64,000 nucleotides of DNA from an uncultured Gemmatimonadaceae bacterium (GTDB taxonomy: Bacteria; Gemmatimonadota; Gemmatimonadetes; Gemmatimonadales; Gemmatimonadaceae). The position numbers were made by a program, and so were the translations under genes. Shown in pieces: positions 31,670-58,753 of this stretch. The stretch spans positions 768,001-832,000 of the forward strand of contig CAVUDW010000002.1 of NCBI GenBank assembly GCA_963740355.1, read 5' to 3'. How positions within the stretch are numbered: the first letter of the stretch is position 1; every line of letters starts with the position of its first letter. The notes under the pieces are model-generated. The model made no database searches. It worked only from the letters and a program-made list of their open reading frames with translations, and had not been told where the DNA came from.

Positions 31670-31677
31670 ACATTGCC

Positions 31678-41297: not shown

Positions 41298-42443
41298 TTA
41301 CGGTTGCGCGGCGCGGAATGCGATGGTCATCCGCACACGCTGTGCGACGGGCTGCTCGTTGCGACGTGCCGGTTCGAAGGTGAAGAGCGGAAGCCCCTCG
41401 AGCGCAGCCTCGCCAAACGCCTTGTGGGTGCTGGCGACGACCCGCGCGGTGCGGGTGTACGGCCGCCCGTCGCTGGCTACCACCAGCTCGAGTTGCACTT
41501 CACCATCCAGAGCCTTGCGACGCAATGACGCTGGATACACGGGCGTCACACTACGTGCGGTGTCGAGCTGCGCCAGCGCGTCGACATCGGCTTCGCTGAA
41601 GATCAGCGAATCCGGAAGCGTCTCGCCGCGTGCGACATGCGGCTCCGGCAGGTAGGTATCCGATCGTCGCGACCAGATCGCAATGGTGCCGCACCGGCTG
41701 CCGTTGTTGAGTGCGAGGAACTCGGGCGGCGTGCGGGACGCGTCAGGGTAGACCTCCACCGCTGCCAGCCCTCGCGGGTCGAAGCCTTCGGTGTTGATCT
41801 CGCCGATGTTGGCCTGAGCCATCCCATCGATGATCAACAACGGATAGCACCGCTCGGCGACGCGTCGTCCTCCGCGCCCGGGGAGCGACGTGGGGCGCAT
41901 GCCAAGTTCGCCGAGACCGTTGACGGTGCGGAGCACGTCGCTGAGGCGCTGGGCATTGCGGGATAACATGTCCGCATGAGTAAAGAACACGCCTTCGCCC
42001 TTGGCACGCCTTTCGTAAAATGCGGCCAGAGGGCCACTATATACGGGGCGACGCGCGGCGGAGACGGTGACCGTGCTGAGGCGGGCGGCTATCGGGTCGA
42101 CAGTCACGACGGTGGCGATCGGTGCCACACCGCAGGATGGGAAGAGCATGATCCTCGCCGGCGCGAAGCCGAGTCGGCGAACGCGGGCGTAGATCGGCGA
42201 GCTGGAGGCGGTGGGGATTCGTGTCTCACCGAGTGAATCGGTCCGGTGCAATGCGTCGCCAATCACGACCGTTGCTTCCGGCAGTGCGGTACCGCTGCTG
42301 TCACGCACCTGCACCGACGCAGCACAGGAGGTCGCTGTTTGCGCCGACAGCCACGCCGCTGTCAGCGACTCGGCGACGAGCAGCGACAGCGCGCGAACGG
42401 AACGCGATTTGGTACAGGGAAAGGCACTCAGCAAGCGAAACAT
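41298..42443 (-). CDS. Secreted CarboxypepD-reg-like + barrel-less TBDT plug + TonB C-terminal domain fusion
   Basis: VRDSSGTALPEATV, VRRLGF, LSTVTVSA, FYERR.KGEGVF, CYPLLIIDG, VEVY, CGTIAIWSR, then PVYPASLRRKALDGEV.LELVV..DGR...FEPARRN. Confidence 0.8.
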   Translation of the reverse strand: MFRLLSAFPCTKSRSVRALSLLVAESLTAAWLSAQTATSCAASVQVRDSSGTALPEATVVIGDALHRTDSLGETRIPTASSSPIYARVRRLGFAPARIMLFPSCGVAPIATVVTVDPIAARLSTVTVSAARRPVYSGPLAAFYERRAKGEGVFFTHADMLSRNAQRLSDVLRTVNGLGELGMRPTSLPGRGGRRVAERCYPLLIIDGMAQANIGEINTEGFDPRGLAAVEVYPDASRTPPEFLALNNGSRCGTIAIWSRRSDTYLPEPHVARGETLPDSLIFSEADVDALAQLDTARSVTPVYPASLRRKALDGEVQLELVVASDGRPYTRTARVVASTHKAFGEAALEGLPLFTFEPARRNEQPVAQRVRMTIAFRAAQP

Positions 42444-42478
42444 CTGCGAACCCTTCAACCTCCTGTGGCGGTCGGCCG

Positions 42479-43591
42479 ATGACGAACGAGCAGCTGCGAC
42501 TGCGGTATGCTGGAATCTGTCATGCCGCCCTGAGGGCTGCTGCCGCCGGCGCCGTCCTGCTCTTCAGTTGGGCAGTACTGCCTGGTCAGACGACGGCGAC
42601 TGCGAAAATGGTTGCGGACCGCGATTCGACCGCAATCCTGGCCGGTCTCGTGCGCGACTCCCTCGGCCGTCCCGTCACGAACGCCACGGTGTCGGAAGTC
42701 GGCATCGATCCCATGAGCACAACGACTGACAGCGCTGGCCGTTTCCGACTGGTTGGCATCAGGGCTGGACACTCACGGGTCGAGGTACGGCGCTCAGGCT
42801 ACGCGATGTTGGGGTTCGATTTCGAGATTGCTCCAGGCATCACCGTCGAACTGGAACTGACGCTGCTGCCTGCCGAGAGAGTCCTGCCGACCTTCGTGAC
42901 GGTCGACGCTGTCGATTCTCTCGGTATTCCCGGTCGGTGGAATGTCGTTGAAGGGACGGTCACCGATTCGACTGGCAGACCCTTGAGCGGAGTGTCGGTC
43001 CAGGGCATGTCCACTGAGCTGGCAGCGACGACCGGCGAAGATGGCCGCTTCGCACTTCGCAAAGTCGCACCGGGGCTGCATTTCCTTCGTCTGCGAAAGC
43101 TCGGTCACCTCCCTGAATACGCGCCGCTTCGAGTGACGGAACGGCAGCGCGTGACACTGCGCGTCGTTCTTCGCCCAGCGTCCGGCGCTCCAATGCTGGC
43201 CGGCGTGACCATCCGGGAAGACGCACGAATGGCGGGCTTTTTCGAACGACGGCGCCGCGGCGGCGGGATCTTCGTGACCCGTGAGGATCTGGAACAGAAA
43301 TACGTCTTCGAGATCTCGGATGCGCTCCGTGGCCGGAAGGCGGTGGATGTGCGTCCGAATTCCGAGGGGGACCGGATCATCGTCGGACGGCGAAGCCTTC
43401 TCGAAGCTCGGTGCCCGCTGGGTCTCCTGATCGACGGGATGCCGTTCATCGGCCCGCCGATCTCGATCGACCGACTCGTCACCGTCAAGCATGTGCGCGC
43501 CATGGAAGTCTACACAAACGGCGCCTCCGTGCCGCTGGGTTTTCAGCAGTCGGCGACCGACTGCGGTGCGATCCTGATCTGGACGCGATGA
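42479..43591 (+). CDS. Secreted 2x CarboxypepD-reg-like + barrel-less TBDT plug protein
   Basis: GLVRDSLGRPV / GTVTDSTGRPL repeats, GFFERRRRGGGIF, CPLGLLIDG, MEVY, CGAILIWTR-stop. Confidence 0.8.
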   Translation: MTNEQLRLRYAGICHAALRAAAAGAVLLFSWAVLPGQTTATAKMVADRDSTAILAGLVRDSLGRPVTNATVSEVGIDPMSTTTDSAGRFRLVGIRAGHSRVEVRRSGYAMLGFDFEIAPGITVELELTLLPAERVLPTFVTVDAVDSLGIPGRWNVVEGTVTDSTGRPLSGVSVQGMSTELAATTGEDGRFALRKVAPGLHFLRLRKLGHLPEYAPLRVTERQRVTLRVVLRPASGAPMLAGVTIREDARMAGFFERRRRGGGIFVTREDLEQKYVFEISDALRGRKAVDVRPNSEGDRIIVGRRSLLEARCPLGLLIDGMPFIGPPISIDRLVTVKHVRAMEVYTNGASVPLGFQQSATDCGAILIWTR

Positions 43592-43689
43592 GGACGAAGG
43601 GAGGCTCGCGTGTCTGCTCGATTGTCGGCAGACCACAACTGCTGGCTCAGGCGTAAACTTCCAGCCCGGAATTGGGTATTCTGCAGGCA

Positions 43690-44826
43690 ATGCACAGACT
43701 TCCTTTTCTCGCGCCGCGCTTTGTCCGCGCCGCGGCGGCGAGCCTGATTCTGGCCGTGTCGGCGCCAGTATTCGGCGTGGCAACAGCACGGGCGCAGGGC
43801 GTTCCTCTGGCGAAGGACTCGGCCCCGAAGGCAACCATCGCGGGCGTGGTGGTCGACAGCCTGGGGAAGCCGGTCAGCAACGCGACGGTTCGGGTGGCCG
43901 GCGGCTCGCCTTCGACCACGACCGATAGCCAGGGGCAGTTCCGCCTCGAAGGGGTGCCCGCCGGCGAAGCCCGAGTTCAGGTCACCGGCGACGGCTACAC
44001 ACCGCTCGGCTTCGAGTTTGCGATTGCGGCGAATGTGACGGTGTCGCTGAAACTGACACTGCTTCCGGCACCGCCATCCGCTGCGCCGCCTCCGGCTGCC
44101 GCCGCAGTAGACGCGCCGGTGATCGCTGGCCCGCCAGACTCCTCAAAGGTCCCGCAAGGACGTACGATCGTTGCCGGCAAGGTCGTCGACTCGGCCGGCA
44201 AGCCGATTTTCGGTGCGTCGGTACAGGCGGTGTCGACAGCGATAGGGACCATGAGTGATTCGTCGGGCCGGTTCCGGCTCTCAAACCTTACGCCGGGCCT
44301 GATCTTCGTGCGCGTCCGCAAGATCGGATACCTCTCCGAATATTTCCCGCTGCAGACGGAAGCCGGCCGCGTCGCGTCGCTGACCGTGAAGCTGCGCCCG
44401 GCATCCAATGCACCGTCGCTGGCACGGGTCGAGGTCCGCGCCGATGCACGACGCGATGCGCGCATGGTGGGCTTCTACGAGCGGATGCGATTGGGCAACG
44501 GCGTGTTCGTGGAGCGCGAGGAATTGCTGCGCCGCAACACCTCGAACGTGACGGAGATCCTGCGCGGCCGGAATGGCGTGAACATCATTCGTGATGCCAA
44601 CAACAACGCAGTGGTGTTCGGGCGCAACCTGACGGGCGCGGGCTACTGCGCGATGGGTGTGCTGGTGGATGGCGTGTTCGTGAACACGCAGGGAATGAGC
44701 ATCGATCAGCTGGTCAACACGCAGGACGTGCGTGCGATCGAGGTGTACAAGACCGGGCCGAGCGTCCCGAACGAGTTTCAACGTCGCGAGACGGACTGCG
44801 GTGCGGTGTTGATCTGGACGCGGTGA
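43690..44826 (+). CDS. Secreted 2x CarboxypepD-reg-like + barrel-less TBDT plug protein
   Basis: GVVVDSLGKPV / GKVVDSAGKPI repeats, GFYERMRLGNGVF, CAMGVLVDG, IEVYK, CGAVLIWTR-stop. Confidence 0.85.
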   Translation: MHRLPFLAPRFVRAAAASLILAVSAPVFGVATARAQGVPLAKDSAPKATIAGVVVDSLGKPVSNATVRVAGGSPSTTTDSQGQFRLEGVPAGEARVQVTGDGYTPLGFEFAIAANVTVSLKLTLLPAPPSAAPPPAAAAVDAPVIAGPPDSSKVPQGRTIVAGKVVDSAGKPIFGASVQAVSTAIGTMSDSSGRFRLSNLTPGLIFVRVRKIGYLSEYFPLQTEAGRVASLTVKLRPASNAPSLARVEVRADARRDARMVGFYERMRLGNGVFVEREELLRRNTSNVTEILRGRNGVNIIRDANNNAVVFGRNLTGAGYCAMGVLVDGVFVNTQGMSIDQLVNTQDVRAIEVYKTGPSVPNEFQRRETDCGAVLIWTR

Positions 44827-44865
44827 CACATCCGCTGTGACCCGGTAGTGATTCACTCCTGCCAC

Positions 44866-44903
44866 GAGCGCCCGCGACATCACGTTGCGGGCGCTTTGTA
44901 TTT
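44866..44903 (+). terminator. Terminator after the plug-protein pair
   Basis: AGCGCCCGC/GCGGGCGCT followed by TTGTATTT. Confidence 0.65.
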
Positions 44904-45070
44904 GTGCATTCGATTTGCATTCGATGTGCACCATGCGCGCGAATCTGGAACATGGCTTTGGCCGGTGCGGTCGCACTGTGGCCCCGTCAGTCATACGTCG
45001 TGACTGACGTGGTGCACGCCTCGCCAGAGAGTCGCGCGCCGCCGATGCGCGACTCTGGCAGGAGGCGAAC

Positions 45071-46054
45071 ATGATGCGAACAAGGATTACAGGAGGGGCG
45101 CTGCTGATGTGTACGGCCATTACATTGGCTGCGTGCTCGGATGGGCCGTCGTCACCGGTTGACATCGGTCGCGGCAAGCGGTTGGCGACCATCGGTGATG
45201 GATGCGGCACCATCATGGCGCAGCGAGTGGTACCCACGCCAACACAGGCATCACCGTCACTCTCGGTTTCGACACCGCCGACCTTGCCGGTCGTGGTCGT
45301 GACGGCCTCGTTTCCCAGCGCGGGTTTGCCGTGGAACGTGATGCAGCAGATGCAGTTTCCACTGAACGCCGGAGCACAGCAGGCGCTCTGCCTGAACTCG
45401 CCATTGGCGACGTACCGTGCGGAGACACTCTACGTTGCGGCGAGCGACCCGATTCCCGCACCGGACGGGGTCGATCCAAACTTCTGGGCATCGCTTTCAC
45501 CCCGCGAGCAGCGGGCGCTGATCGCGAGGGCAAAGCAGCTGATGGAGCTGTATCCGAACAAGTATCCGACCATTGGCTCCACCATCGACGCGTTCTTCAA
45601 GCAGAAGATGCTGCCGGCCAAGTTCGAGGCGAAACTGCGAGGCATCGATTTTCTCGGAGGCACCAGCGAAGCCGAGATGATGGCGGGTGGCGTGTACGGC
45701 TGCTTGCTCTATCAGCGATTCGTGCGCGATCCAGACTGGTTTCTCTCGAATCGCGAGACGCTGGAGCTCGTGACGGAGCTGGTGACGGCATTCGCGGAAG
45801 CGGAGTTCGCGTCGTTCCCGCTCCGGGCGGTGCAGTTCGGGCGCAACGGCGTGTTTGGCGCGGCGATGGCCCAGTCCGACCCGTACGGCAGCGAATGTGG
45901 TCGCCTGGTCTTCGATTCGATTCCCAGTGGGCGCATCGATGTGCGTGACCCGTATTCAACACCGAGTGCTGGGGCGACCCCACCGCCGGGCAACCCGAAT
46001 TACTCGCCGGCACCGCCGTTCACTGGCGGACCTGACGGCTGGTGGGACCAGTGA
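45071..46054 (+). CDS. Hypothetical lipoprotein
   Basis: AGGAGG SD, lipobox LAAC, Pro-rich linker and tail; no recognised family. Confidence 0.7.
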   Translation: MMRTRITGGALLMCTAITLAACSDGPSSPVDIGRGKRLATIGDGCGTIMAQRVVPTPTQASPSLSVSTPPTLPVVVVTASFPSAGLPWNVMQQMQFPLNAGAQQALCLNSPLATYRAETLYVAASDPIPAPDGVDPNFWASLSPREQRALIARAKQLMELYPNKYPTIGSTIDAFFKQKMLPAKFEAKLRGIDFLGGTSEAEMMAGGVYGCLLYQRFVRDPDWFLSNRETLELVTELVTAFAEAEFASFPLRAVQFGRNGVFGAAMAQSDPYGSECGRLVFDSIPSGRIDVRDPYSTPSAGATPPPGNPNYSPAPPFTGGPDGWWDQ

Positions 46055-46151
46055 GATGACGGCGTGCTGACGCACGTCTCGACTGTTGCGGTGGGTGCGC
46101 ATGGCGCCGTGCGCGCCCACCTCCTTCTCCAAATCCAGACTCGACTCTTCG

Positions 46152-46730
46152 ATGCGCCTTCTTCTCATCTCGATCCTTGCGGTCTCCCTCACTGCACCCG
46201 CGCGTGCGCAGGGCGCGGTGTCACCAATGACGCCGGCGGCCGCCTTCGAAAGTTTTTCGCGCGTCGCAGCCACGGTGGGACAGCCGACGACGGCGCTGGC
46301 TCGTCTCTGGCCGCAACCGCTCGATGCGAGGGCCGAAACTGCAACACTCCAGGTCTCGGCCTCGCATCTCCTGACCGTGCGTACGGCTGGCGATTCACAG
46401 CGAACCGACGGTGTTCAACGGGTCACGGCGGCGGACTTTCATGAACGGGTGGCGGACACCCTCGTACTGCGACGACGAGTGATGGAGCTGATGCGGCTGA
46501 TCGCCAAGGGTTCGGTAGTGCCTGACCGGTGTGACACACCGCTGGGTCCACCCGCCTACCTGTTCGCGCCGCAGCGTGTCGCCCGTCACTGGCGCCGCGG
46601 CCTTGCCGACCAGCCAACGCAACTCGTGTGGGAAGTCGCGCCAGGCTCCGTGTATCTGATCTCAGTCCACGTGGGTGCATCACTGGATGCCGGTGCAGCG
46701 ATGATCGGGTGTGACGCGAGGATGCCGTAG
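46152..46730 (+). CDS. Hypothetical secreted protein
   Basis: MRLLLISILAVSLTAPARA-Q signal peptide; two Cys. Confidence 0.6.
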   Translation: MRLLLISILAVSLTAPARAQGAVSPMTPAAAFESFSRVAATVGQPTTALARLWPQPLDARAETATLQVSASHLLTVRTAGDSQRTDGVQRVTAADFHERVADTLVLRRRVMELMRLIAKGSVVPDRCDTPLGPPAYLFAPQRVARHWRRGLADQPTQLVWEVAPGSVYLISVHVGASLDAGAAMIGCDARMP

Positions 46731-46746
46731 CGGCGAATCGCAGTCG

Positions 46747-48042
46747 CTATGCGAGCAGTGACAGAACGAGGCTCGTAGCGCGGTCAGCGGCACCGAGTCC
46801 GTGCTGGACACGTTCACGTGCACGCGCGCCTGCAGTGTCGCGGGCGCTGGAGTCGGTGGGAGAGAGCCAGGTCGTGAGCACGTCGACCAGTTCAGCACTG
46901 GTGCGCACGCTTCGGGCGGCGCCGTCAGCGAGCAGCAACTCGGCGTCGCGGCTGTTTCGGAATTGAGGTCCGAAGATCACCGGCGCGCCGAAGGCCGCCG
47001 GTTCGAGCACGGAGTGCAACCCGGCGGAATGAAACCCGCCGCCGACGAAGGCCACGTCTGCGATCCCGTAGAGATCACCGAGTACGCCGACGCGATCGAC
47101 GAGGACAACGTCGGCCGTGGCGTCGTCAGTGGCGTCGAGGCGTGTACAGCGGAGCTTCTGTTGTGCGGCCCACGACTCGATTGGCGCCAGGTGTGCGGCG
47201 GTCGGCTCGTGGGGGGCGATGACCAGGCGCAGCGCGCCCGGGTACTTTCGCGTCAGTTCGAGCCACGCGGGCAGGAGCACGGTATCGTCGGCCGGCCATG
47301 TCGAGCCTGCGACCAGCGTGAGGCGTGTCGTCTCGCGGAAACGCGTGAGCCATGGCGCAGACTGTGCGACGGCCGACGCGCGGGCCCAAACCTGATCGTA
47401 CCGCGTGTCGCCGGTGACCTGGATCACTTCCGGACGCACACCGATTTCCACCAGTCGCGCCGCGTCGGCTTCATCGATCGCACCGACGGCATCGAGTGCC
47501 GCGTACGCATCGCGGGTCAGTGCGGCGGCGATGCCGTGGCGCCGCCCGGAACCTTCGGCGAGTGTGGCGCTGATCATGCCGAGCTTCACGTCATGCGCCT
47601 TGGCTTGTTCAACCAAAAGCGGCCAGACATCGAGCTTGCTGAAGATCAGTGCTGTGGGGTGCAGCGCCTCGACGGCGGCGCGCATGTCGTGCGTGGTGTC
47701 GAAGGGGAGGTAATCGCGGAAGTCGGCGCCGGTGCGTTGTGCGAACGCCGCGGCGCTTGGCGAGAAGTGCGTGTACGCCAACTGGATGTCGGGGCGGTGT
47801 TGCCGCAATTGCGACATCACGGGGACCGCTTGCAGTCCTTCACCAACACTAGGTGCATGGAACCAGACCAGGGGACGTGACCGAGCGCGCGCAGTTCGAC
47901 CAAACGCTGCGTATCGATCGAGCAGTCCTCGACGGCCAGATATCGTCCGCGCGAGTTTGCCGTCGCCAGGAACGCCGGTGGCAACGGCGAGTCGCGCAAT
48001 CGCGCCTGCGCCGGCGTACAATCCGCGCAGGAGCGGGTTCAT
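46747..48042 (-). CDS. waaA: 3-deoxy-D-manno-octulosonate (Kdo) transferase
   Basis: WFHAPSVGE, YLPFD, TGDTRYD, AGSTW, IAPH, AFVGGGF...HSVLEPA.FG.PVIFGP. Confidence 0.92.
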   Translation of the reverse strand: MNPLLRGLYAGAGAIARLAVATGVPGDGKLARTISGRRGLLDRYAAFGRTARARSRPLVWFHAPSVGEGLQAVPVMSQLRQHRPDIQLAYTHFSPSAAAFAQRTGADFRDYLPFDTTHDMRAAVEALHPTALIFSKLDVWPLLVEQAKAHDVKLGMISATLAEGSGRRHGIAAALTRDAYAALDAVGAIDEADAARLVEIGVRPEVIQVTGDTRYDQVWARASAVAQSAPWLTRFRETTRLTLVAGSTWPADDTVLLPAWLELTRKYPGALRLVIAPHEPTAAHLAPIESWAAQQKLRCTRLDATDDATADVVLVDRVGVLGDLYGIADVAFVGGGFHSAGLHSVLEPAAFGAPVIFGPQFRNSRDAELLLADGAARSVRTSAELVDVLTTWLSPTDSSARDTAGARARERVQHGLGAADRATSLVLSLLA

Positions 48043-48078
48043 CGCACGCGCGCGGTGGCGCCGGTCAGCGGCTGCCGT

Positions 48079-48777
48079 TCAGCGCGGGTGCGACGCGAGG
48101 TTGGCGTCGATCACGCGCTTGAAGTCGGGAAACGGATAAGCGCCGCTGAGCAGGCTGTCGCCGATGATGAACGCCGGCGTGCCATTGATGCCCGCGGTCG
48201 ACGAACGTTCTGCATCGCTGGCGATCAAAGGACGGGTGGCGTGTGTCGACTGGCAGGTACCGAACTGTTTCGCGTCGAGCTGCAGCGCGCTGGCGAAGCG
48301 CGCGAACATGGTATCCGGCTTCGCAATCACGGCCCAGCGTTCCTGCGCATCAAACAGCGAGTCATGCATGGCCCAGAACTTTCCCTGCACCGAGGCGCAC
48401 ATGGCGGCTTCAGCAGCGGGCCACGAATTCTGGTGGCTGCGCAGTGGCAGGTTCACGTAGGCCATGCGCGTCTTCCCGTTGTCGACGTAGGCCGCGCGCA
48501 GCTTGGCGTAGGTCGAGTCGTGGAAGGCCTTGCAGTACGGGCACTGGAAGTCACTGATCTCCAGCACGATGACCTTCGCGCCCGAGTCGCCAACGATCCG
48601 GCCGAGGTCGGCCTTTCGCAGCAACGCGGTATCCATCGCCACCGGGATCGCGTCCGGGCCGTACACCGCTGGCTTTGGTGCCCCCGCCGCGTCAGCCGGC
48701 GTGGCACTTTCGGCAGTCTTGGCGCAGGCGAGCAATACGGCTGCCACAAGGGCGCCCAGAGCGAGTCGAGCAGTCAT
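48079..48777 (-). CDS. DsbA/BdbD-family thioredoxin-fold lipoprotein
   Basis: Lipobox LLAC, SDFQCPYC, QGKFWAMHD, GINGTPAF; the upstream ORF extension to 48984 is repeat-derived. Confidence 0.88.
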   Translation of the reverse strand: MTARLALGALVAAVLLACAKTAESATPADAAGAPKPAVYGPDAIPVAMDTALLRKADLGRIVGDSGAKVIVLEISDFQCPYCKAFHDSTYAKLRAAYVDNGKTRMAYVNLPLRSHQNSWPAAEAAMCASVQGKFWAMHDSLFDAQERWAVIAKPDTMFARFASALQLDAKQFGTCQSTHATRPLIASDAERSSTAGINGTPAFIIGDSLLSGAYPFPDFKRVIDANLASHPR

Positions 48778-48849
48778 GGTCACAAGGGTCAGGGAATCCC
48801 GAAAACTACTCCTGCACCCTTTACGCACGCACCCGCCCCGCTTCCTTTT

Positions 48850-48980
48850 GCGGCGACGCTGCGTTTGCGCCTGACGGTCCGCACACTGCCGGTTCCGCGG
48901 CGACGCTGCGCTTTCGCCTGTCGGTCCACACTCCCGGTTCTGCGGCGACGCTGCGCTTACGCCTGACGGTCCACACTCCC
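48850..48980. repeat. Tandem array of three 45-47 bp REP-like units (fourth copy at ~49033)
   Basis: GCGGCGACGCTGCGYTT.CGCCTGWCGGTCC..ACT at 48850, 48897, 48942; internal GGCG/CGCC hairpin. Confidence 0.9.
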
Positions 48981-48983
48981 TCA

Positions 48984-49261
48984 CGCGGAGCCGCGGGGGA
49001 CGCGGAGACGCGGAGGACTGCCACCGCCTCCTCGGCGACGCTGCGCTTACGCCCGGCGGTCCACCGCGTCACGAGTTCGGGTGTGCGTCGCCGCCCCGTG
49101 TGCCGACCGGTAGGCTGATTTTTTGGGGAACTGCGCGCACAAAGCGTGGCCAGCCACACCTCCTTCAAAAAGCAGTTGCTCCTTGTCCGGTGTGGACCGC
49201 CCCGCCGCCGCCTGGCGTCCGGTGCAGTCCTCCGCGTCTCCGCGTCCCCCGCGGCTCCGCG
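48984..49261. repeat. Element bounded by perfect 38-bp inverted repeats (REPIN/MITE-like)
   Basis: CGCGGAGCCGCGGGGGACGCGGAGACGCGGAGGACTGC (48984-49021) is the exact reverse complement of 49224-49261. Confidence 0.9.
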
Positions 49262-49470
49262 GGTTTGACCGTGTGGACCGCCGGCGCGGCACGCGCGAGA
49301 ACCCTGCAATGCTGCACGGCGAGGGTGTTTGCGCGGCGCCTGCACCATCGTGACGCGCACGAGCGCTCGCGCGATTCGCTTTGGTTGGTAACGGGAACGT
49401 GGCGCGGGCGGGAACGTGACACTTCCGGGGCGCGGCGGCGTATTATTCGGCGTCACCTCAAGCCCAATCG

Positions 49471-50292: not shown

Positions 50293-51065
50293 CGAGTTCA
50301 GCGATGCAGGAGACGGAGCTGGCCAGCGAAATGGCCGTGCGCGATCTGGTGGCGGCCCTGCAAGGCCTCTACGGTGAATCGCTGCGCGCCGTCGTGCGCT
50401 TCGGGTCGGCCGTGGCCGGCGAAGTGCTGCCGGGGCAGTCGGACACGAACCTGCTGATCATCGTCGACGCCATTCCGCTCGGGAAGCTGCTCGACAACGC
50501 CATCGCCGTACAGAAGTGGACAGCCGCCGGCAATCCCGCGCCGCTGCTGCTGACGCTGGAAGAGTGGCGCTCGTCGTCGGACATCTTTGCGATGGAGTAC
50601 GCCGACATCCTGCACCGCCATCAGGTGCTGGTCGGTGACGCACCGTTCGAGGAGATCCATGTCGCGCTGCACGACCTGCGCCTGCATGTGGAACGTGAAG
50701 CGATGGGGAAGCTGCTGCAGCTGCGTCGGGCGATCATGGCGGTCGGTGGCGACGCGCCGTCGCAGCTCCGACTGCTGCTGAATGGCCTGTCGACGCTGAT
50801 GGTGATCTTTCGCGGCGTGTCACGCGTGTCTGGCAATGCACCGCCGATGGACTATGTCCAGCTGAGCCGAGAAGTCGCGACGCTGGCGGCATTCGACGCG
50901 AAACCCTTCGAACGGCTGGTGCAGCACGCACGTCGGGAAGTACAGATTCCTGTGTCCGACGTCACGTCAGTGCTGACCGGTGTACTGGATGCCATGGGGC
51001 GCCTGGTGGCGCACCTCGACCGGGCGGCGGCAATCGCGCGGTCAGACGCGACCACGTCGCAGTGA
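50289..51065 (+). CDS. Pol-beta-like nucleotidyltransferase-domain protein
   Basis: AVVRFGSAVAGE...SDTNLLIIV followed by a helical C-terminal domain; GTGA overlap. Confidence 0.75.
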   Translation: MTSSAMQETELASEMAVRDLVAALQGLYGESLRAVVRFGSAVAGEVLPGQSDTNLLIIVDAIPLGKLLDNAIAVQKWTAAGNPAPLLLTLEEWRSSSDIFAMEYADILHRHQVLVGDAPFEEIHVALHDLRLHVEREAMGKLLQLRRAIMAVGGDAPSQLRLLLNGLSTLMVIFRGVSRVSGNAPPMDYVQLSREVATLAAFDAKPFERLVQHARREVQIPVSDVTSVLTGVLDAMGRLVAHLDRAAAIARSDATTSQ

Positions 51066-51137
51066 CGTGATCGCAGCAGGTCCCCGGTGCTGCGTGTGGC
51101 GGCACCGTTCACTTCCGAACTTCGAGAGAGCGAAACG

Positions 51138-51812
51138 ATGCGTGCAATGACGATGGCTCGACCCGACACAGTGCGCGGCGCGCGCGCGCGTTGGCTGCGC
51201 CGCGCGGTACTGCTCCTGCCGTTGGCGCTCGGCGCCTGCGGCTACAACACCATCCAGTCGCTCGATGAGTCGGCGGCCAAGTCGCAGAAGGAGATCGAAG
51301 TCCAGCTGCAGCGCCGCGCCGACCTGATTCCAAACCTGGTGGCGACCGTGAAGGGATTTGCGGCGCAGGAGTCCAGCATCTTCATCGCCGTGGCCCAGGC
51401 GCAGAAGGGGTTGACTGGTGCCCTGGCACGTCCCGGCGGCGCGAACCCGGCCGAGCTGGCCTCGGCCAACGACGCGCTGTCGCGCGCGGTGTTGCCGATG
51501 ATGACACTGGTCACGAGCTACCCGCAGCTGAAGAGTGATGCCCAGTTCCTGAAGCTGCAGGATGAGCTGACGGGCACGGAGAACCGCATCGCCGTCAGCC
51601 GCACGGACTACAACAACTCCGTCAACGAGTACAACGCCTACATCCGCAAGTTTCCGGCGGTCATGACGGCGAAGGTGCTCGGCAGCAAGCCGCGTGAATA
51701 CTTCGAGGTGACGGATGCGGCGAAGCGTGAGGCGCCCACGGTGGACTTCAACGCCGCGCCGGCTGCGCCTGCCGCAACGGCACCGGCGGCTCCAGCCCCG
51801 GCGAAGCCGTAG
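51138..51812 (+). CDS. lemA: LemA-family protein
   Basis: CGYN, QLQRRADLIPNLVATVKG, YPQLK, LQDEL.GTENRIAVSR.DYN. Confidence 0.93.
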   Translation: MRAMTMARPDTVRGARARWLRRAVLLLPLALGACGYNTIQSLDESAAKSQKEIEVQLQRRADLIPNLVATVKGFAAQESSIFIAVAQAQKGLTGALARPGGANPAELASANDALSRAVLPMMTLVTSYPQLKSDAQFLKLQDELTGTENRIAVSRTDYNNSVNEYNAYIRKFPAVMTAKVLGSKPREYFEVTDAAKREAPTVDFNAAPAAPAATAPAAPAPAKP

Positions 51813-51838
51813 TCGCTCCAGCGGTACCGGTGTACGCG

Positions 51839-51873
51839 AAGGGCCAGCTCCGAATGAGGAGCTGGCCCTTTTT
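51839..51873 (+). terminator. Terminator after lemA
   Basis: GGGCCAGCTC/GAGCTGGCCC followed by TTTTT. Confidence 0.85.
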
Positions 51874-51914
51874 GTCATGTGGTGGAACGCCGAGATCGAC
51901 GTGATGCGTCGCAA

Positions 51915-52610
51915 TCAGTTCGGCGTGATGATGACCGAGTCGATGGTGGCACGCAGCGCGGTAATCGTGCTTGGCCACGGCACCTGACGCTTGTTGACGA
52001 CGATGTGTGGAAGCGCCCCGACGCGATTGGTATCGGCCCAGTCGATGTCCATACGGATCTGTCGCAGCATGCGCATGCTCGAGACACAGTTGCGATACTT
52101 GTAGTCCACCATGCCAGGCAGGCTCACCAGCGACTCCGCGAGGGCAGCGGTATCCTTGGCGGCGGCCCATTGATCCTGCGTCGAAAACAGGCGCGTACTC
52201 GCCTCCCAGAACTGCCCTTGGGAGCTGGCGCACATGGCAGCGTTGGCCGCGCGCACCGCCGCGGGATGTTTACGCAGTGGGTAGTGCACCCAGATCAATC
52301 GGGCGCGGCCTGTCTCGACGTATTCGCTGCGGATGACCGGCAGCACCTTCTCGAACCAGGTGCGGCACTCGGCGCACTGGTAGTCGCTCACCACGAGGAT
52401 GCTGACGGTGGGATTGCTCCCCAGCACTCGACCGGCATTGCCAGCCTTCACGATCACGTCTGGCGTCGTCGCCTTGCGGTCCTCGGGAATTCGCCTGACA
52501 TCGGTGGAGGGGACATCAGCGGCAGCGCTGCGCTGGCATGCGGCGGCGAGGAACGGGAGTACCATCATGGCAAGCCGCAATCGTCGGCGGCCGAAGCGGG
52601 TGCTGAACAT
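51915..52610 (-). CDS. DsbA-like thioredoxin-fold lipoprotein (CAEC active site; start uncertain)
   Basis: LAAAC lipobox, SDYQCAEC, HYPL, AAMCA..QGQFW, cis-Pro loop ALPH. Confidence 0.82.
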   Translation of the reverse strand: MFSTRFGRRRLRLAMMVLPFLAAACQRSAAADVPSTDVRRIPEDRKATTPDVIVKAGNAGRVLGSNPTVSILVVSDYQCAECRTWFEKVLPVIRSEYVETGRARLIWVHYPLRKHPAAVRAANAAMCASSQGQFWEASTRLFSTQDQWAAAKDTAALAESLVSLPGMVDYKYRNCVSSMRMLRQIRMDIDWADTNRVGALPHIVVNKRQVPWPSTITALRATIDSVIITPN

Positions 52611-52721
52611 GCCGAAGTGTAGTCGCCCTATCCTCGCCCGACCAACATCCATATCCTAGATATCGGAATGGATCATTTGACCACGTGTCATGACACTGCA
52701 GCACCGTCTGGAGCCTATTCG

Positions 52722-54194
52722 ATGACTGCCATGCGCCCAGGACCCGTCCGTCGAGTCGCGATCGCAGTGTTCGTGACGGCGATCGGCACGCTGACTGGCT
52801 GCAGGCGGGAGCGTCCAGCAGCGGATCCGCAATTCGTCGCCCAGTGGATGCGCACATCGCTGGCATTCGTGCGCAGCGAGCGGCTTGGCCCGCCAGTGGC
52901 ATCACGGATTTCGGCGTACGCATCGTTGGCCTTGTATGAAGGCTACGCGTCGGACTCGCGCTTCACGCTTCGCTCCCTCGGTGGCCAGTTGAATGGACTC
53001 TCTGCGCTGCCGGCAGCCCCAGACGGTGCACCGCTCGATGGCCCGGTAGTGGCGGCGATCGCCGAGCGAGTGGTGCTCGACTCGCTGTTTCGCGATGGCA
53101 TGCCGGGCACGAGGCGGACGATCGATTCGCTGGCCGCGGCGCAACTTGCAGCGCGGTCGGTTGCTGGGGTGACGGCGAACGATAGCGCACGCGCAGTTGC
53201 ACATGGCCGCGCGATCGGGAACGCAATCCTGGCGTGGGCGGCGACCGACAGCTTTTACGCGACGCGTGGTCGTGCGTGGGCGCCGTCGGGGAAGCGTGAG
53301 CAGTGGCAGAACACCGCCAACGTCGCCCAGTTCGTGCCCCAGACGCTTTCAGGCCAGTCGGACCTGGTGCAACTGGCGAACCCGAATGTGCATGTCGACG
53401 TCGAGACGGCAACCGCGAAGGGGACGTTCACCAACCGGCCGCGCGTTGACGGGCCGACCACGCTGCCGGCGTTCAACCCGATGAAGCCGACGGAGCCGTA
53501 CTGGGGCAAGTTGCGCCCCTTCGTGCTCAGTAGCGGCGATGAATGTGCGCCACCACCGCCGCCGCCGTATTCGGAAGCACCCGGCTCGGCATTCTATGCG
53601 ATGGGCAAGCAGTTTCACGACACACTGACAGCACTCACGCCGGAACAGAAGCAGATCGCGCTGTTCTGGGCCGACAACCCAGTCGCGACGGGCACTCCGG
53701 GTTTTCACTGGATCAGTGTGGCGAGCCTGATGGTGGCGCGGCGGAAGCTGAGCGCCGATGCCGCCGCCGAGTTGTACGCACTGACCTCGATCGCGATCGC
53801 CGATGCGTTCATCGGTTGCTGGCAGGAGAAGTATCGCTCCAACGTGGTGCGCCCGGTGGCGTGGGTACAGCGTGTGCTCGATCCGAAGTTCCAGACCGTG
53901 ATTCCCACGCCGCCATTCCCCGAATACACCTCGGGGCATTCGGTGCAGTCGGGCGCTGCCGTGGATGTGTTGATCTCGCTGCTTGGTGACAGCATTCCGT
54001 ACATCGATTCGACGCAGGTCGACATTGGCCAACCCGCGCGACCGTTCGCGTCGTTCAGCAAGGCGCGCGACGAAGTCGCGATTTCGCGCGTCTATGCCGG
54101 CGTCCATTACTTCCCGGCCGTGTTCGATGGCATGGCGCAGGGGCAGTGCATTGGTCGCAAGGTCAGTGCGCTTCACACGCGTCGAGACAGGTGA
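52722..54194 (+). CDS. Vanadium-dependent haloperoxidase / PAP2-superfamily lipoprotein
   Basis: KYRSNVVRP, TPPFPEYTSGH, SRVYAGVHY active-site motifs; LTGC lipobox. Confidence 0.88.
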   Translation: MTAMRPGPVRRVAIAVFVTAIGTLTGCRRERPAADPQFVAQWMRTSLAFVRSERLGPPVASRISAYASLALYEGYASDSRFTLRSLGGQLNGLSALPAAPDGAPLDGPVVAAIAERVVLDSLFRDGMPGTRRTIDSLAAAQLAARSVAGVTANDSARAVAHGRAIGNAILAWAATDSFYATRGRAWAPSGKREQWQNTANVAQFVPQTLSGQSDLVQLANPNVHVDVETATAKGTFTNRPRVDGPTTLPAFNPMKPTEPYWGKLRPFVLSSGDECAPPPPPPYSEAPGSAFYAMGKQFHDTLTALTPEQKQIALFWADNPVATGTPGFHWISVASLMVARRKLSADAAAELYALTSIAIADAFIGCWQEKYRSNVVRPVAWVQRVLDPKFQTVIPTPPFPEYTSGHSVQSGAAVDVLISLLGDSIPYIDSTQVDIGQPARPFASFSKARDEVAISRVYAGVHYFPAVFDGMAQGQCIGRKVSALHTRRDR

Positions 54195-54200
54195 TGCGCG

Positions 54201-57200
54201 CTGCCGACGTGGCGCCGTCGCGTAGTGTCGGTGACCGGTGCCACAGTCGCGGTGGCACTGGTTGCATGCTCGAAGGCACCGCCGGTGGACACGAGTTGGC
54301 ACCAGGAGTCGGGCTACCGGTGGCGCGCGCTCGCGGTTCCTTTGAAGGGCAAGGCCGGTTTCGAGTTGCTGACGTCATCGCGAACAGGCCTGTTGCACCG
54401 CAACGACATCGATGACACGCGCGCCCTCGACAATCGTGGGCTGCTGGACGGCGCCGGCGTGGCGATCGGTGACGTCGATGGTGACGGCCGTCCGGACATC
54501 GTGCTGGCATCGGAGGAAGTGCCGGCTGCGTTGTATCACAATGACGGCGAGTTCCGCTTCAGCGACGTGACGAAAGCGAGTGGGCTCGACTTCACGGGCC
54601 TGCAGACGACTAGCGTGGTACTGGTCGACGTCGATGGCGACCGGGATCTCGATCTGGTGGTGGGAACGTTCGGTGGGCCGGTGGTGCTGTTTTCGAACGA
54701 CGGCAAGGGGCATTTCACGAATGCCACTGCGGGCAGTGGGCTCGCCGGTGGCTACAACGCCACCACGATGACGCTGGCCGATGTCGACGGCAATGGATCG
54801 CTCGATCTCTACGTGGCCACGTACAAGACACGCAATGCGCTCGATGCCTACACACCGCAGCAGCGGGCGTTCGACCAGGTGTTGAAGAAGGTCGGCGATT
54901 CCGTCGTGGTGGTGGACGAGTGGAAGAAGGAGTTTCGCGTCGAGGCGAGGCCGGACCTGGGCGGGTTCATGCGCTCGCAGCGCGCCGAGCCTGACCTGTT
55001 CTTCCTCAATGACGGCAAGGGGCACTTTACGCGCACGCCGGTGCTCGGCCCGCGATTCCGCGATGAACGTGGTGCGCCGCTGACGGTCGATCCTGACTAC
55101 TTCGGGCTCGCCGCACGCTTCTACGATGTGAATGGCGACGGTGCGCCGGATCTCTACGTCTGCAATGACCTCGAAGACCCGGACCTGTTCTTCCTCAACG
55201 ATGGCACGGGTGGGTTTCAACTCGCACCGGAGCGTGCGTTGCGGGTGACAAGCAACACCTGCATGTCGGTCGACTTCGGCGATGTGAATCGGGACGGGCA
55301 CACCGACATCTTCACCACCGACATGCTGGCGCCCACGCTGGCGGCGCAGCAGCGCAGCATCCCCACACATACACCGCTGCAGAAGCCGGTGGGACTGTCG
55401 CCGGAGCGCACGCAATGGATGCGCAACATGCTGCAGCTGTCGCGGGGTGATGGGACGTGGGCGCAGGTCGGCGACTTTGCTGGCGTGACGGCGACCGACT
55501 GGACGTGGGGATCGGCGTTCCTCGATGTCGACCTCGATGGGTACGAGGATCTGCTGGCCGCGAATGGACATCGCTACGACCTGCGCGAGGCCGATCCCTA
55601 CGATCGGATTCGCAACAGCTTTCCCCGTGTGCCGTGGAATCGGGAGTCGAAGGAGTTTCCGCGTCTCGAGACGCGCAGTGTGGCCTTCCGGAACGGCCAC
55701 GACCTCGCGTTCACCGACGAGAGTGCCGCGTGGGGCTTCGGCGTCGACAAGGCTATCTCGCAGGGCATCGCGCTGGGCGACCTTGATGGGGATGGAGCAC
55801 TGGATGTGGTCGTGACGCGACTGGACGCGCCGTCGGTCGTGTATCGCAATACCTCCGCCGCGCCGCGTATCAGTGTGCGACTCAGAGGCAGTGGTGCGAA
55901 CACGCAGGGGATTGGTGCCGTGATCACGGTGCGTTCGCCGGCGCTGCCGGTGCAGTCCCGCGAAGTGACCTCGGGCGGCTACTACCTCTCGGGGAGTGAT
56001 GCACAGCTGACCTTTGCCGCACATCCTGATAGCGCCAGCCAGATCACGGTGCGCTGGCGGAGCGGCCGTGTGAGCACGATTGCACTTGCGGCGAGCAATC
56101 GACTGTACGAGATCGATGAAGCAGGTGCGGTCGAGGGTACACCAGCGAGAGACTCGAGTGCAAAGCGCCCAGCGCTCTTCGCCGATGCAACACCACTGTT
56201 GGCCGGCGCAACGCATGTGGATTCGTTGTACGCCGACTTCCGCCGCCAGCCGTTGTTGCCGAATCGCTTCAGTCAGCTGGGCCCAGGGGTCAGCTGGATC
56301 GACGTTGATGGCGATGGCCGCGACGACCTGGTCTTCGGCACTGGCCGTGGCGGTGCGTTGCATATTCTGCGTAACGCTGGCGGCCGTTTCGTACCGCTCG
56401 ACGTGGGGAAGGGCACGTCGGCGTACGATCTCACGACCGTGCTGCCAGCCTTCGGTGGAACCGGTGGGGTGTCCCTGCTAGTGGGGCAGTCGAGTTACGA
56501 GGCATCGGACAGCATCGTGCCTTCGACGGTGCCGTCGGTACTGGCGATCGGCGTTGGTGCGCGTACCGCGTTGCCTGCGGTGGCAGTCGCGGGGGACACG
56601 GCGAGTGTGGGGCCGATGGCGATGGCGGATGTGAATGGCGATGGGATGCTCGACTTGTTCGTCGGCGCGCGTGTGATTCCGGGCGCATGGCCCTTGCCGG
56701 CGCGCTCACGATTGCTGCTCGGCTCAGCCAGCGGCGCGTTCGTCGAGGATGTGGCCAATCGCGGCGCGATGTCGAGCCTCGGCCTCGTGTCGGGCGCGAC
56801 CTTCGCTGATCTCGACGGCGATGGACGCCCTGAGCTGATCGTGGCCACCGAATTCGGTCCGGTCCGTGTCCTGCACAACGACCGCGGGACACTGCGCGAC
56901 CAGACGAAATCACTCGGCTTCGGTGATCGATCGAGCCGCTGGAATGGTGTGACCACCGGTGACTTCGATGGGGATGGGCGTCTGGATATCGTCGCCACCA
57001 GCTGGGGGCGCAACGTGCCCTGGCAGACCTCTGCGCAGCGCCCCTACGAGTTGCTGGTGGCGCGCGTGGATGGTGACCGGCTCGGGCTGCTCTTTGCGCG
57101 CCGCGATTCGCTCACGTCGCGGGAGATGCCACTGGATGGTTTCGCGCGTATCGGTGCCGCGATTCCATCGGTGAAGGAACGGTTCGCGACGTTCGACGCC

Positions 57201-57926
57201 TTTGCCCGCGCCGATGCCGACGCGGTGCTGGGTGAGTCGGCCGCGAAGGCGGTGCGTGTCGGCGCAACGACGTTCGATCATACGATCTTCCTCAATCGCG
57301 GCGATCACTTCGAAGCGCATGCGTTGCCGACTGCCGCGCAGCTTGCGCCGGCGTTTGGTGTCGTGGTCGCTGACTTCGATGGCGACGGGCGCGAGGACCT
57401 GTTCCTGGCGCAGAACTTCTTCCCCACCGAGATCAACGCGATGCGTTTCGATGCCGGGGCGGGGTTATTGCTGCGCGGCGATGGCAAGGGCGGTTTTGAG
57501 CCACAGCCCATCCCCTCGAGCGGGATCGCAGTGCTCGGTGACCAGCGCGGTGCGGCAGCCGCCGACTATGACGGTGATGGTCGAGTCGATCTGGCGGTCT
57601 CGCAGAACGGTGCGCCGATGACGCTGTGGCACAACGTGGGCGGTTCCCCCGGCGTGCGCGTCCGGTTGCAGGGGCCGGCGAGCAATCCGCTTGGCATCGG
57701 CGTTCGGTTGCAGATCGTCAGCGGGGCAACGCGCGGACCGCTGCGCGAGGTGCATGCGGGCAGCGGCTACTGGTCGATGGATGCTGCGACGCAGGTGCTG
57801 GCGGTGCCGGCTGGAGCGACGGAAGTGCTGGTACGCTGGCCATCGGGTACCGAACAGCGTGTGCCGGTCACCGTTGGGCAGCGTGTCGTGACGGTGGTGT
57901 TTCCGACGCCCGCTGCGCCTCGCTGA
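54201..57926 (+). CDS. FG-GAP/VCBS-repeat lipoprotein with ASPIC/UnbV domains (CRTAC1-like)
   Basis: Many D(V/F/L)(D/N)GDG..D repeats, two N..GIG...GY.S ASPIC-like segments, LVAC lipobox; start CTG 54201 or GTG 54225. Confidence 0.88.
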   Translation: MPTWRRRVVSVTGATVAVALVACSKAPPVDTSWHQESGYRWRALAVPLKGKAGFELLTSSRTGLLHRNDIDDTRALDNRGLLDGAGVAIGDVDGDGRPDIVLASEEVPAALYHNDGEFRFSDVTKASGLDFTGLQTTSVVLVDVDGDRDLDLVVGTFGGPVVLFSNDGKGHFTNATAGSGLAGGYNATTMTLADVDGNGSLDLYVATYKTRNALDAYTPQQRAFDQVLKKVGDSVVVVDEWKKEFRVEARPDLGGFMRSQRAEPDLFFLNDGKGHFTRTPVLGPRFRDERGAPLTVDPDYFGLAARFYDVNGDGAPDLYVCNDLEDPDLFFLNDGTGGFQLAPERALRVTSNTCMSVDFGDVNRDGHTDIFTTDMLAPTLAAQQRSIPTHTPLQKPVGLSPERTQWMRNMLQLSRGDGTWAQVGDFAGVTATDWTWGSAFLDVDLDGYEDLLAANGHRYDLREADPYDRIRNSFPRVPWNRESKEFPRLETRSVAFRNGHDLAFTDESAAWGFGVDKAISQGIALGDLDGDGALDVVVTRLDAPSVVYRNTSAAPRISVRLRGSGANTQGIGAVITVRSPALPVQSREVTSGGYYLSGSDAQLTFAAHPDSASQITVRWRSGRVSTIALAASNRLYEIDEAGAVEGTPARDSSAKRPALFADATPLLAGATHVDSLYADFRRQPLLPNRFSQLGPGVSWIDVDGDGRDDLVFGTGRGGALHILRNAGGRFVPLDVGKGTSAYDLTTVLPAFGGTGGVSLLVGQSSYEASDSIVPSTVPSVLAIGVGARTALPAVAVAGDTASVGPMAMADVNGDGMLDLFVGARVIPGAWPLPARSRLLLGSASGAFVEDVANRGAMSSLGLVSGATFADLDGDGRPELIVATEFGPVRVLHNDRGTLRDQTKSLGFGDRSSRWNGVTTGDFDGDGRLDIVATSWGRNVPWQTSAQRPYELLVARVDGDRLGLLFARRDSLTSREMPLDGFARIGAAIPSVKERFATFDAFARADADAVLGESAAKAVRVGATTFDHTIFLNRGDHFEAHALPTAAQLAPAFGVVVADFDGDGREDLFLAQNFFPTEINAMRFDAGAGLLLRGDGKGGFEPQPIPSSGIAVLGDQRGAAAADYDGDGRVDLAVSQNGAPMTLWHNVGGSPGVRVRLQGPASNPLGIGVRLQIVSGATRGPLREVHAGSGYWSMDAATQVLAVPAGATEVLVRWPSGTEQRVPVTVGQRVVTVVFPTPAAPR

Positions 57927-57949
57927 GCGCGCGGGCTGGAGGCAGTGCG

Positions 57950-58753
57950 TTACGGCTGCTTCTTGCGCCGTGCGGGTCCGGATTTCGTCCAGATGACGAT
58001 CACACCGCAACCCGCATTGCGTCCCGCGTATTCGCCGGGCACGTCGGCGGGGCCAGTGTAAACCTCTAGCCCCTCGATGTCGCGCACAGGCATCGTCGGG
58101 CCAAACATGTTGTCGACGTTGTCGTCCACGATGTACTCGGGGGTGCAGCGCATCGGCGCCCTGACCATTCTGATCACGCAGCCCCCCTGCGCACCGCCGC
58201 CGCACTCGACGTTCACGCCGCGAAGCGAACGGGCGACATCCTGCAGGTTGGAGAACTGCCTCTGTTCGATCTGTTCGCGCGTCACGTATTGACCCGCGCC
58301 AGTCTTTCGGCGCCGTTCGAAGTTGGCGAATCGCGGGCCAAGGCTGCGCTCGCCTTCCACCGTCACCGGCGCGAGCATCTGCCCGCGTGAGGCCGATTCC
58401 GTTGGCGGGGGTGCTGGGCGGCTCGCAACAGGTGTCGAATCCAGTTCCACTCGGCTGTCGAGACTCTCACCGGGCGACAGAGCGACGACCAGTGCACCGG
58501 CCGGGAATCCGTCGGCGCGGATCAGGAATCGAGCGATTCCCATTGGGAGCTTGTCGAATCGGAACAGGCCCGTGGAGTCGGTCTTCTTCGCGCTGCCATC
58601 GCCGAGAAAAACGACAGTGGCGTTGGCGACCGGGGCACCGCTACTGCGATCGACGACCGAGCCGTTGACGCGCGCGTTCTTCGTCTGCGCACCTGCTGAG
58701 CGCGAGGCGCAGAGGGCAACCAGCAGCAGGAAGCCGACACGGAACCGACGCAT
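57950..58753 (-). CDS. Secreted CarboxypepD-reg-like + barrel-less TBDT plug protein
   Basis: Signal peptide, GSVVDRSSGAPV, LAPVTVEG, FERRRKTGAGQYVTREQI, CTPEYIVD, LEVY.G, CGVIVIWTK. Confidence 0.85.
   Translation of the reverse strand: MRRFRVGFLLLVALCASRSAGAQTKNARVNGSVVDRSSGAPVANATVVFLGDGSAKKTDSTGLFRFDKLPMGIARFLIRADGFPAGALVVALSPGESLDSRVELDSTPVASRPAPPPTESASRGQMLAPVTVEGERSLGPRFANFERRRKTGAGQYVTREQIEQRQFSNLQDVARSLRGVNVECGGGAQGGCVIRMVRAPMRCTPEYIVDDNVDNMFGPTMPVRDIEGLEVYTGPADVPGEYAGRNAGCGVIVIWTKSGPARRKKQP

Follow-up and report, generated by a model that had tools for sequence, protein, structure and literature searches.

Can the plug domain of a TonB-dependent transporter exist as a protein of its own, and what would such a protein do in the periplasm? 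By the usual teaching, a plug domain always goes with its barrel. The question is raised by four genes, P0001 to P0004, in a stretch of 64,000 nucleotides (the window; positions 768,001 to 832,000 of contig CAVUDW010000002.1, assembly GCA_963740355.1) from an uncultured Gemmatimonadaceae bacterium. A reading of the sequence alone, here called the original prediction, had described their products as secreted plug proteins that lack a barrel and flank SusC/D loci. The genes are intact, conserved and numerous, and it is well supported that they are members of an autonomous family and not decayed receptors. The family retains only the inner-facing front end of an outer-membrane importer, and may well act on the TonB system in the periplasm. 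The four genes and their parts are as follows, where NTE stands for N-terminal extension, TonB_C for the TonB C-terminal domain and pLDDT for the predicted local distance difference test score.

41298..42458, minus strand: P0001, with signal peptide, one NTE-like CarboxypepD_reg domain, TonB-box-like motif, plug-like domain and TonB_C; the probable start is the ATG at 42443 (minus strand)
42057..42080, minus strand: TonB-box-like motif LSTVTVSA of P0001, placed by alignments; pLDDT <50 at residues 130-134
41670..42026, minus strand: plug-like domain of P0001, residues about 145-263; family profile E 1.2e-34
41304..41582, minus strand: TonB_C of P0001, residues about 293-385
42479..43591, plus strand: P0002, with signal peptide, two CarboxypepD_reg domains and a plug-like domain at about 43184-43588; family profile E 1.8e-40
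43196-43219, plus strand: TonB-box-like motif LAGVTIRE of P0002
43690..44826, plus strand: P0003, with signal peptide, two CarboxypepD_reg domains and a plug-like domain at about 44401-44823; family profile E 6.6e-46
44419-44442, plus strand: TonB-box-like motif LARVEVRA of P0003
57950..58753, minus strand: P0004, with signal peptide, NTE-like domain (58442-58675) and plug-like domain (57968-58342)
58352-58375, minus strand: TonB-box-like motif LAPVTVEG of P0004

The open reading frames (ORFs) have the architecture first read from them, and the likely starts at 42479 and 43690 agree with those given earlier. The plug regions of all four proteins align end to end, and the alignment bears out the shared features that had been proposed: the TonB-box-like strings, an F..ERR..G.G motif, two invariant Cys and the ending CG.I.IW[TS][RK]. 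The three SusC plugs of the window have neither Cys, as had also been proposed. In family members, as in SusC/RagA proteins, an NTE of the CarboxypepD_reg fold precedes the TonB box. That the proteins carry Sec signal peptides is strongly supported. P0002 and P0003 are 45% identical, and codon-position GC is coding-like in all four genes. The original prediction had the proteins ending at the plug boundary with no barrel to follow. No barrel is found in any of the four, while the common endpoint holds for three, since P0001 runs ~120 residues further into TonB_C. There is also no room for a barrel downstream of the genes, as their neighbours are too close: the gene after P0002 is P0003, an unrelated lipoprotein gene comes 244 bp past P0003, and a convergent gene lies 23 bp beyond the end of P0004. 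No full-length match to the SusC/RagA model TIGR04056 is reached by P0001-P0004, the best being that of P0003 (70.5 bits, model positions 3-182).

A search with HMMER had been suggested as a check of the domains, and its outcome is mixed. CarboxypepD_reg is found in all four proteins (E 0.0015 in P0001, two stretches at E 1.8e-26 in P0002 and at E 2.5e-32 in P0003, E 7e-11 in P0004), and P0001 additionally matches Pfam TonB_C (PF03544, residues 306-382, E 4.7e-11). The gathering threshold of Pfam Plug (PF07715; 23.9 bits) is passed only by P0003 (34.6 bits, E 2.9e-8) and P0004 (35.3 bits, E 1.8e-8). P0001 stays under it (16.4 bits, E 0.013), and P0002 has no Plug match at E<=1. The other paralogue ORFs match Plug at E<=0.01 in 7 of 12 cases. 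Because Pfam Plug passes two of the four, the assignment of all four rests on a family profile, on profile-profile alignment by hhalign and on the fold. The profile was built from 15 paralogous plug-like domains of this genome. Aligned by hhalign to the canonical plugs of the genome, it reaches a probability of 88.9% (E 2.4e-6) and pairs the family's CGVIVIWTK with the canonical NGVIQITTK. Profile matches in the PDB are to the plug regions of Cir and BtuB (E 3.6e-5 to 5e-5).

The AlphaFold2 model of P0004 has a mean pLDDT of 86.2 and consists of three parts. The NTE-like sandwich (residues 27-104) has a pLDDT of about 97. It is followed by a linker of ~30 residues that holds LAPVTVEG and is predicted to be disordered (pLDDT about 50). 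The third part is a compact domain (residues 140-256, pLDDT 84-96) whose first element is a helix from the F..ERR motif. The domain thus models as a plug of the TonB-dependent transporter fold, as originally expected, in agreement with the fold matches. That the C-terminal domain of the family has a plug fold which is never followed by a barrel is strongly supported, the fold being that of the models.

The family is large even within this genome (G000; 5.45 Mb), in which the profile finds 16 full members and one 124-residue fragment; a genome-wide count of paralogues had been among the proposed checks. Members score E 6.4e-11 or better, and the best canonical plug only 3.7e-5. All 16 have a signal peptide and 1-3 CarboxypepD_reg-type domains, and they end 0-14 residues past the plug-like domain, P0001 with its TonB_C being the sole exception. 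Identity of the paralogues to P0004 is 21-34% among 15 aligned plug domains. Maximum-likelihood analysis of the 16 plug-like domains together with this genome's 35 canonical plugs places all 16 in one clade (SH-aLRT 99.7), to which the SusC-type plugs are nearest (support 82). In the best explanation the family arose once, from the N-terminal module of a SusC-type transporter (NTE, TonB box and plug). The fragment (G000 C3:1465293-1465664) matches the C-terminal half of the domain only (E 1.4e-9) and is probably the remnant of a lost paralogue.

In a wider search the profile identifies 12,426 cluster representatives with an E value no higher than 1e-3, of which 8,862 reach 1e-10. In the best 150 of these, the tail past the domain has at most 5 residues in 91, 6-20 in 44, 21-60 in 11 and >60 in 4, so that the domain lies within 20 residues of the C-terminus in 135. 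None of the 150 continues into a barrel, and all 4 long tails are TonB_C; orthologues that run on into a barrel had been named as an outcome that would speak against the family. TonB_C is also the only fusion partner met in the family that is not Ig-like: in eight very long open frames with the domain, only CarboxypepD_reg/Ig-like domains precede the plug. Two plug-like domains occur in 15 of the best 150 representatives. In these (e.g. the metagenomic P0125-P0128 and P0131) the whole unit of CarboxypepD_reg and plug-like domain occurs twice per chain, and one representative of 1079 residues carries four CarboxypepD_reg and two plug-like domains. Frames of 739-1484 residues were considered as real long members and set aside as mostly spurious read-through at high GC.

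A search with P0004 alone, among proteins of 146-468 residues, gives 605 relatives with E no higher than 1e-3; the 120 best share 54-94% identity with it and are 231-322 residues long. The nearest orthologue detected at the DNA level has 63% protein identity, a distance at which saturation of synonymous sites is to be expected. Where names are given, the relatives are mostly called 'carboxypeptidase regulatory-like domain-containing protein', from Gemmatimonadaceae or Gemmatimonadota. Of 151 sampled genomes of the phylum Gemmatimonadota, 100 contain the family (the unpublished genome G097 included in the tally). In the window's own bacterial family none of the 31 sampled genomes lacks it; the next has it in 46/71, and it is almost absent from the bacterial families outside the window's class (1/19). 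Copies per genome range from 1 to 27, which is a lower bound, since 27 candidates were scored per genome. Atlas look-ups likewise indicate Gemmatimonadota. Taken with its fold and its Cys pair, the 16 members in a single clade and the thousands of representatives agree with the proposal of an evolved free-standing family. Full-text literature searches returned no description of natural barrel-less plug proteins, the passages on isolated plugs concerning plugs inside barrels, and as far as these searches go the term 'undescribed' holds. The family is large and uncharacterised, and a TonB-directed role is plausible.

One long paralogue (G000 C2:1628589-1630304) is divergent from a gene for an extracytoplasmic function (ECF) sigma factor (L004:6457-7068, minus strand), and a 931-residue CarboxypepD_reg protein with no plug or barrel match lies 1.6 kb away. 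A role of the long paralogues as anti-sigma factors was considered and rejected, as all long members begin with a signal peptide and not with a cytoplasmic domain.

Two elements of the domain are especially well conserved. Both Cys are kept in 162 of the 165 domains that the best 150 representatives contain, and the number of Cys per domain is two in 147, four in 16 and odd in 2. Even counts and near-invariance form the pattern of disulfides in an exported protein, and the pair may well be oxidised to a disulfide after export. The TonB-box-like motif, L(91%)-x-x-V(78%)-x-V(87%)-x-[AG](80%), is kept inside an otherwise variable linker that is predicted to be disordered. A further trait of the plug-like domain is an N-terminal helix peculiar to the family (F..RR..G.G). 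The part of the window that separates the two groups of Cys-pair proteins contains two genes with a DsbA-like thioredoxin fold (48079-48984 and 51915-52652, both minus strand; Thioredoxin_4 E 1.9e-27 and 2.4e-23), and a link of these genes to the putative disulfides is possible.

P0001 represents a subfamily in which the plug is fused to TonB_C. Its model contains three confident domains (mean pLDDT 79), and the strands and helices of the plug are those seen in P0004. The fused domain is 32% identical to the C-terminal domain of the canonical TonB. Full-length proteins of this type occur in 24 of 41 genomes of the bacterial family, a tally that takes in the unpublished genomes G175 and G176. 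Of 12 loci, 3 adjoin SusC and 2 are followed by another TonB_C gene; the remainder have unrelated neighbours. P0001 has the C-terminal domain of a TonB energy transducer, while at its N-terminal end a signal peptide, NTE and plug stand in place of an anchor and spacer. No ExbB or ExbD gene was found near P0001. The genome contains one canonical TonB-ExbB-ExbD-ExbD cluster, away from P0001, whose TonB has a transmembrane helix and a Lys/Pro/Glu spacer. A close paralogue of this TonB (61% identical) lies elsewhere, together with further TonB_C genes (the tally of TonB genes takes in the unpublished genome G156). As it has neither a membrane anchor nor a Pro/Lys-rich spacer, and no ExbB/ExbD nearby, P0001 cannot pass on proton-motive energy.

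Comparison with known systems places the family close to, and apart from, the SusC/RagA proteins. Plug domains of FepA and FhuA that were isolated in the laboratory are largely unfolded in solution, whereas the natural family has gained the helix and the pair of Cys, and its model predicts with confidence that it folds alone. It fails to qualify as a TonB-dependent transporter on the defining feature, the barrel. The closest known relative is the N-terminal module of SusC/RagA proteins such as BT1763 and SusCdex of Bacteroides thetaiotaomicron. In contrast to these, the family has no 22-strand barrel and no contact to a SusD lid. The helix before the plug, the near-invariant Cys pair and a WT[RK] ending are additions of the family; its proteins can have as many as four NTE-like domains, and some of them carry two plugs or TonB_C. 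The study of BT1763, a SusC of B. thetaiotaomicron, reports a TonB box (DEVVVTG) after the NTE, deletion or mutation of which abolishes growth on levan, as deletion of the NTE does (PMC7782687). Its authors suggest there that the NTE may give specificity for TonB paralogues (PMC7782687).

TonB and its dedicated paralogues differ from P0001 in their N-terminal membrane anchor and Pro/Lys-rich spacer, which P0001 replaces by a cleavable signal peptide, NTE and plug. Transporters of the MxcH type resemble P0001 in combining TonB_C and plug in one exported polypeptide, and the TonB_C of P0001 matches the first 87 positions of the NCBIfam MxcH model (E 4.2e-11). In MxcH, however, TonB_C is N-terminal and a complete barrel follows, whereas in P0001 it is C-terminal and there is no barrel; against the model as a whole (792 positions) P0001 scores 41.6 bits, with a cut-off of 925. 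Transporters of the Oar type (Myxococcus, Acidobacteria; Oar is the subject of PMC6434023), of which this genome has about 10 genes, share an NTE-like domain ahead of TonB box and plug. Unlike the family, Oar has a large barrel, and in the tree the family's plugs group with the SusC-type and not with the two Oar-type plugs included there.

The genomic context of the four genes bears on what they might do. The neighbouring features of the window are these.

31543-33090: ORF in the SusD position behind SusC1; no match to a SusD model or to the PDB
33069-33635, plus strand: CHRD-domain protein behind SusC1 and its partner, a small exported accessory gene
34772..38119, plus strand: SusC/RagA-type TonB-dependent transporter 2 (SusC2); TIGR04056 466.2 bits, Pfam Plug and CarboxypepD_reg; the locus ends just before P0001
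38191..39831, plus strand: lipoprotein in the SusD position behind SusC2; lipobox LAAC, no Pfam or NCBIfam match
40205..41200, plus strand: DUF4397 protein between SusC2/D2 and P0001, likewise a small exported accessory gene; Pfam E 7.2e-16, syntenic in a same-genus relative (L021)
45071-46054, plus strand: lipoprotein (lipobox LAAC) directly 3' of P0003; no family match, 50% identity to the syntenic copy in L021
46086-46730, plus strand: secreted protein, second gene 3' of P0003; no family match, 45% identity to the syntenic copy in L021
54225..57926, plus strand: FG-GAP/ASPIC (UnbV) protein of 1233 residues; Pfam FG-GAP_3 E 1.4e-75, convergent with P0004
58985..62194, plus strand: SusC/RagA-type transporter 3 (SusC3); TIGR04056 463.4 bits, divergent from P0004 across 231 bp
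62221..63783, plus strand: lipoprotein in the SusD position behind SusC3; lipobox LAGC, no family or PDB match

In the same-genus relative, the gene order is SusC2, the gene in the SusD position, DUF4397, the P0001 orthologue, one P0002/3-like gene, two exported proteins and KdtA. Since that genome has a single P0002/3-like gene in this order, P0002 and P0003 are a local duplication. Orthologues of P0004 at E 1e-40 or better are found in 7 of 41 genomes of the bacterial family, the window's own counted. The search of contigs with P0004 gave only 3 loci, and synteny is taken from the genome-wide search. The orthologue is divergent from a SusC/RagA gene in 7/10 loci; of the other three, two are cut by contig ends, and in one the large receptor-like ORF is a different one. 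In 7/10 loci the orthologue also adjoins an ORF of about 1,200-1,300 residues, similar in size to the FG-GAP/ASPIC protein and convergent with the orthologue where strands were read. A search for inverted repeats between P0004 and susC3 gave nothing usable.

Placement beside transporter loci, part of the original prediction, proves to be a partial trait. In this genome a canonical transporter is found within 10 kb of 4/11 family loci, where 1.77 are expected (P 0.086, permutation). In three complete genomes of another genus the enrichment is significant, with 13/38 loci within 10 kb (5.5 expected, P 0.002) and 9/38 within 5 kb (3.0 expected, P 0.0025), although these three genomes are kin and the test overstates their independence. 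The linkage to transporter loci is real and concerns about one third of loci.

The explanation that fits these observations best, to which we would give a probability of roughly 0.45, is that the family's plugs fold as soluble periplasmic modules, expose their TonB box, and compete for or adapt TonB-type domains. The oxidised Cys pair and the extra helix would replace the support of the barrel wall. Having neither barrel nor ligand gating, the protein would keep its TonB box permanently exposed, and TonB-type C-terminal domains could bind it by pairing of beta strands. Acting as competitors or adaptors, the proteins would then tune how energy is directed among the cell's roughly 44 TonB-dependent transporters, with some copies dedicated to an adjoining SusC locus, as P0004 may be to susC3. 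In the P0001 subfamily, the protein's own unanchored TonB head could cap a TonB box, be it a transporter's or another member's, and pass on no energy. A TonB-directed role is favoured because the TonB-box motif is conserved and exposed and the fusion to TonB_C is recurrent. Given the logic of this fusion and the descent from SusC front ends, engagement of TonB-type domains appears to be the most economical reading. Several points weigh against it. Engagement of TonB is read from the motif and the fusion, and the disulfide from conservation and even Cys counts. In the model of P0001, the protein's own TonB box is not paired with its own TonB_C (predicted template modelling score 0.37, motif pLDDT <50). 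The majority of family loci in the three genomes of the other genus (25/38) are away from any transporter, and the enrichment near transporters is not significant in this genome. Anchoring or docking unrelated to TonB would also suit a C-terminal domain that stays constant while the number of Ig-like domains in front of it varies.

Such docking would be a structural function with no role in energy transfer: the plug-like module would fix a stalk of Ig-like CarboxypepD_reg domains to a partner in the outer membrane or cell wall, and the TonB-box-like strand would belong to the linker or offer a beta-strand handle to some other partner. The extreme C-terminal position of the domain in 135/150 representatives suits this reading, as do an N-terminal part made up of 1 to 4 Ig-like domains and no other domain type, and the unrelated neighbours at most loci. 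However, the TonB-box-like motif is conserved as strongly as the core of the fold, the sole non-Ig fusion partner is TonB_C, the nearest relatives are SusC plugs, which use the same motif for TonB, and the double-plug proteins (15/150) hold one copy internally. On balance docking is unlikely. Quite unlikely, too, is a receiver of ligands in the periplasm, in which the plug would keep its substrate-contacting face, take oligomers beneath its cognate SusC and hand them on, the TonB box serving for positioning only. The clustering with transporter loci, partial yet significant, points in this direction; so does the divergent pairing of P0004 orthologues with one SusC lineage, and the diversity of the paralogues (16 copies, 21-34% identity to P0004) would suit different ligands. 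Conservation, in contrast, is highest in the core of the fold, the Cys pair and the TonB-box side and not in the loops, and two thirds of loci are unlinked to transporters.

A very improbable alternative, offered in the original prediction and disfavoured by the genome-wide search for barrels, is that the proteins are plugs in trans, inserting into separately encoded 22-strand barrels that have none. When FhuA is split, its plug and barrel can still come together in vivo. In Bacteroides there are SusC-like barrels with a reduced plug, as a recent preprint describes (bioRxiv 10.1101/2025.11.13.688124). However, there is no population of plug-less barrels in this genome: barrel matches in frames of at least 700 residues all come with a plug match or with a long enough N-terminal region, and the exceptions in the search are two frameshifted genes and one weak frame of 213 residues. 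Two plug-like domains in one chain (15/150) and TonB_C at the place where a barrel would start (4/150) also argue against insertion, and the extra helix and Cys pair look like adaptations to a life free of the barrel. Decay or truncation of receptor genes, whether as pseudogenes or as assembly artefacts, has next to no probability and is refuted by the data. Nothing speaks for it but the missing barrel, while length is held at 231-322 residues across 54-94% identity, thousands of representatives share the endpoint, the family forms a single clade, and the four genes of the window have coding-like codon-position GC and no downstream room for a barrel. Receptors that are truly broken look different, as the two canonical ones in this genome consist of overlapping frames with the plug in one and the barrel kept in the other. 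These (G000 C3:299266-301889 and C3:1133897-1136450) carry a frameshift or an assembly error and contrast with the barrel-less family.

Natural autonomous plugs with a TonB box show that this module can exist independently, with stabilisation by a putative disulfide, and they do so at scale, with thousands of cluster representatives and at least 27 copies in one genome. Current annotation hides this coherent family under the names 'carboxypeptidase regulatory-like domain-containing protein' and 'TonB-dependent receptor plug domain-containing protein'; the present analysis gives its size, single origin, Cys statistics, folds and neighbourhood statistics. The family also offers a plug that is predicted to be naturally soluble for biophysical work. 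Should its members bind TonB, the Ton system would have its first soluble endogenous competitors or adaptors, and with them a handle on the way in which dozens of transporters share a single TonB complex. A bolder proposal, which we regard as doubtful, is an unrecognised regulatory layer in Gemmatimonadota, in which dozens of soluble periplasmic front-end decoys or adaptors per cell, with the TonB-head subfamily as an anti-TonB factor, would jointly allocate the energy of importers. In that case free plug domains would be a new class of periplasmic regulator, not parts of transporters.

The loci beside the family genes had been called SusC/D loci, and the SusC half of this name is well founded, as all three transporters of the window are SusC/RagA proteins by TIGR04056 (463, 466 and 462 bits; cut-off 368.25). 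For SusD, nothing beyond position bears the name out: the three ORFs in the SusD position have no SusD match in Pfam (best E 0.23) or NCBIfam, and a sequence search of the PDB with those starting at 31543 and 62221 matched no solved structure. These ORFs may represent a very divergent SusD-like lineage of Gemmatimonadota.

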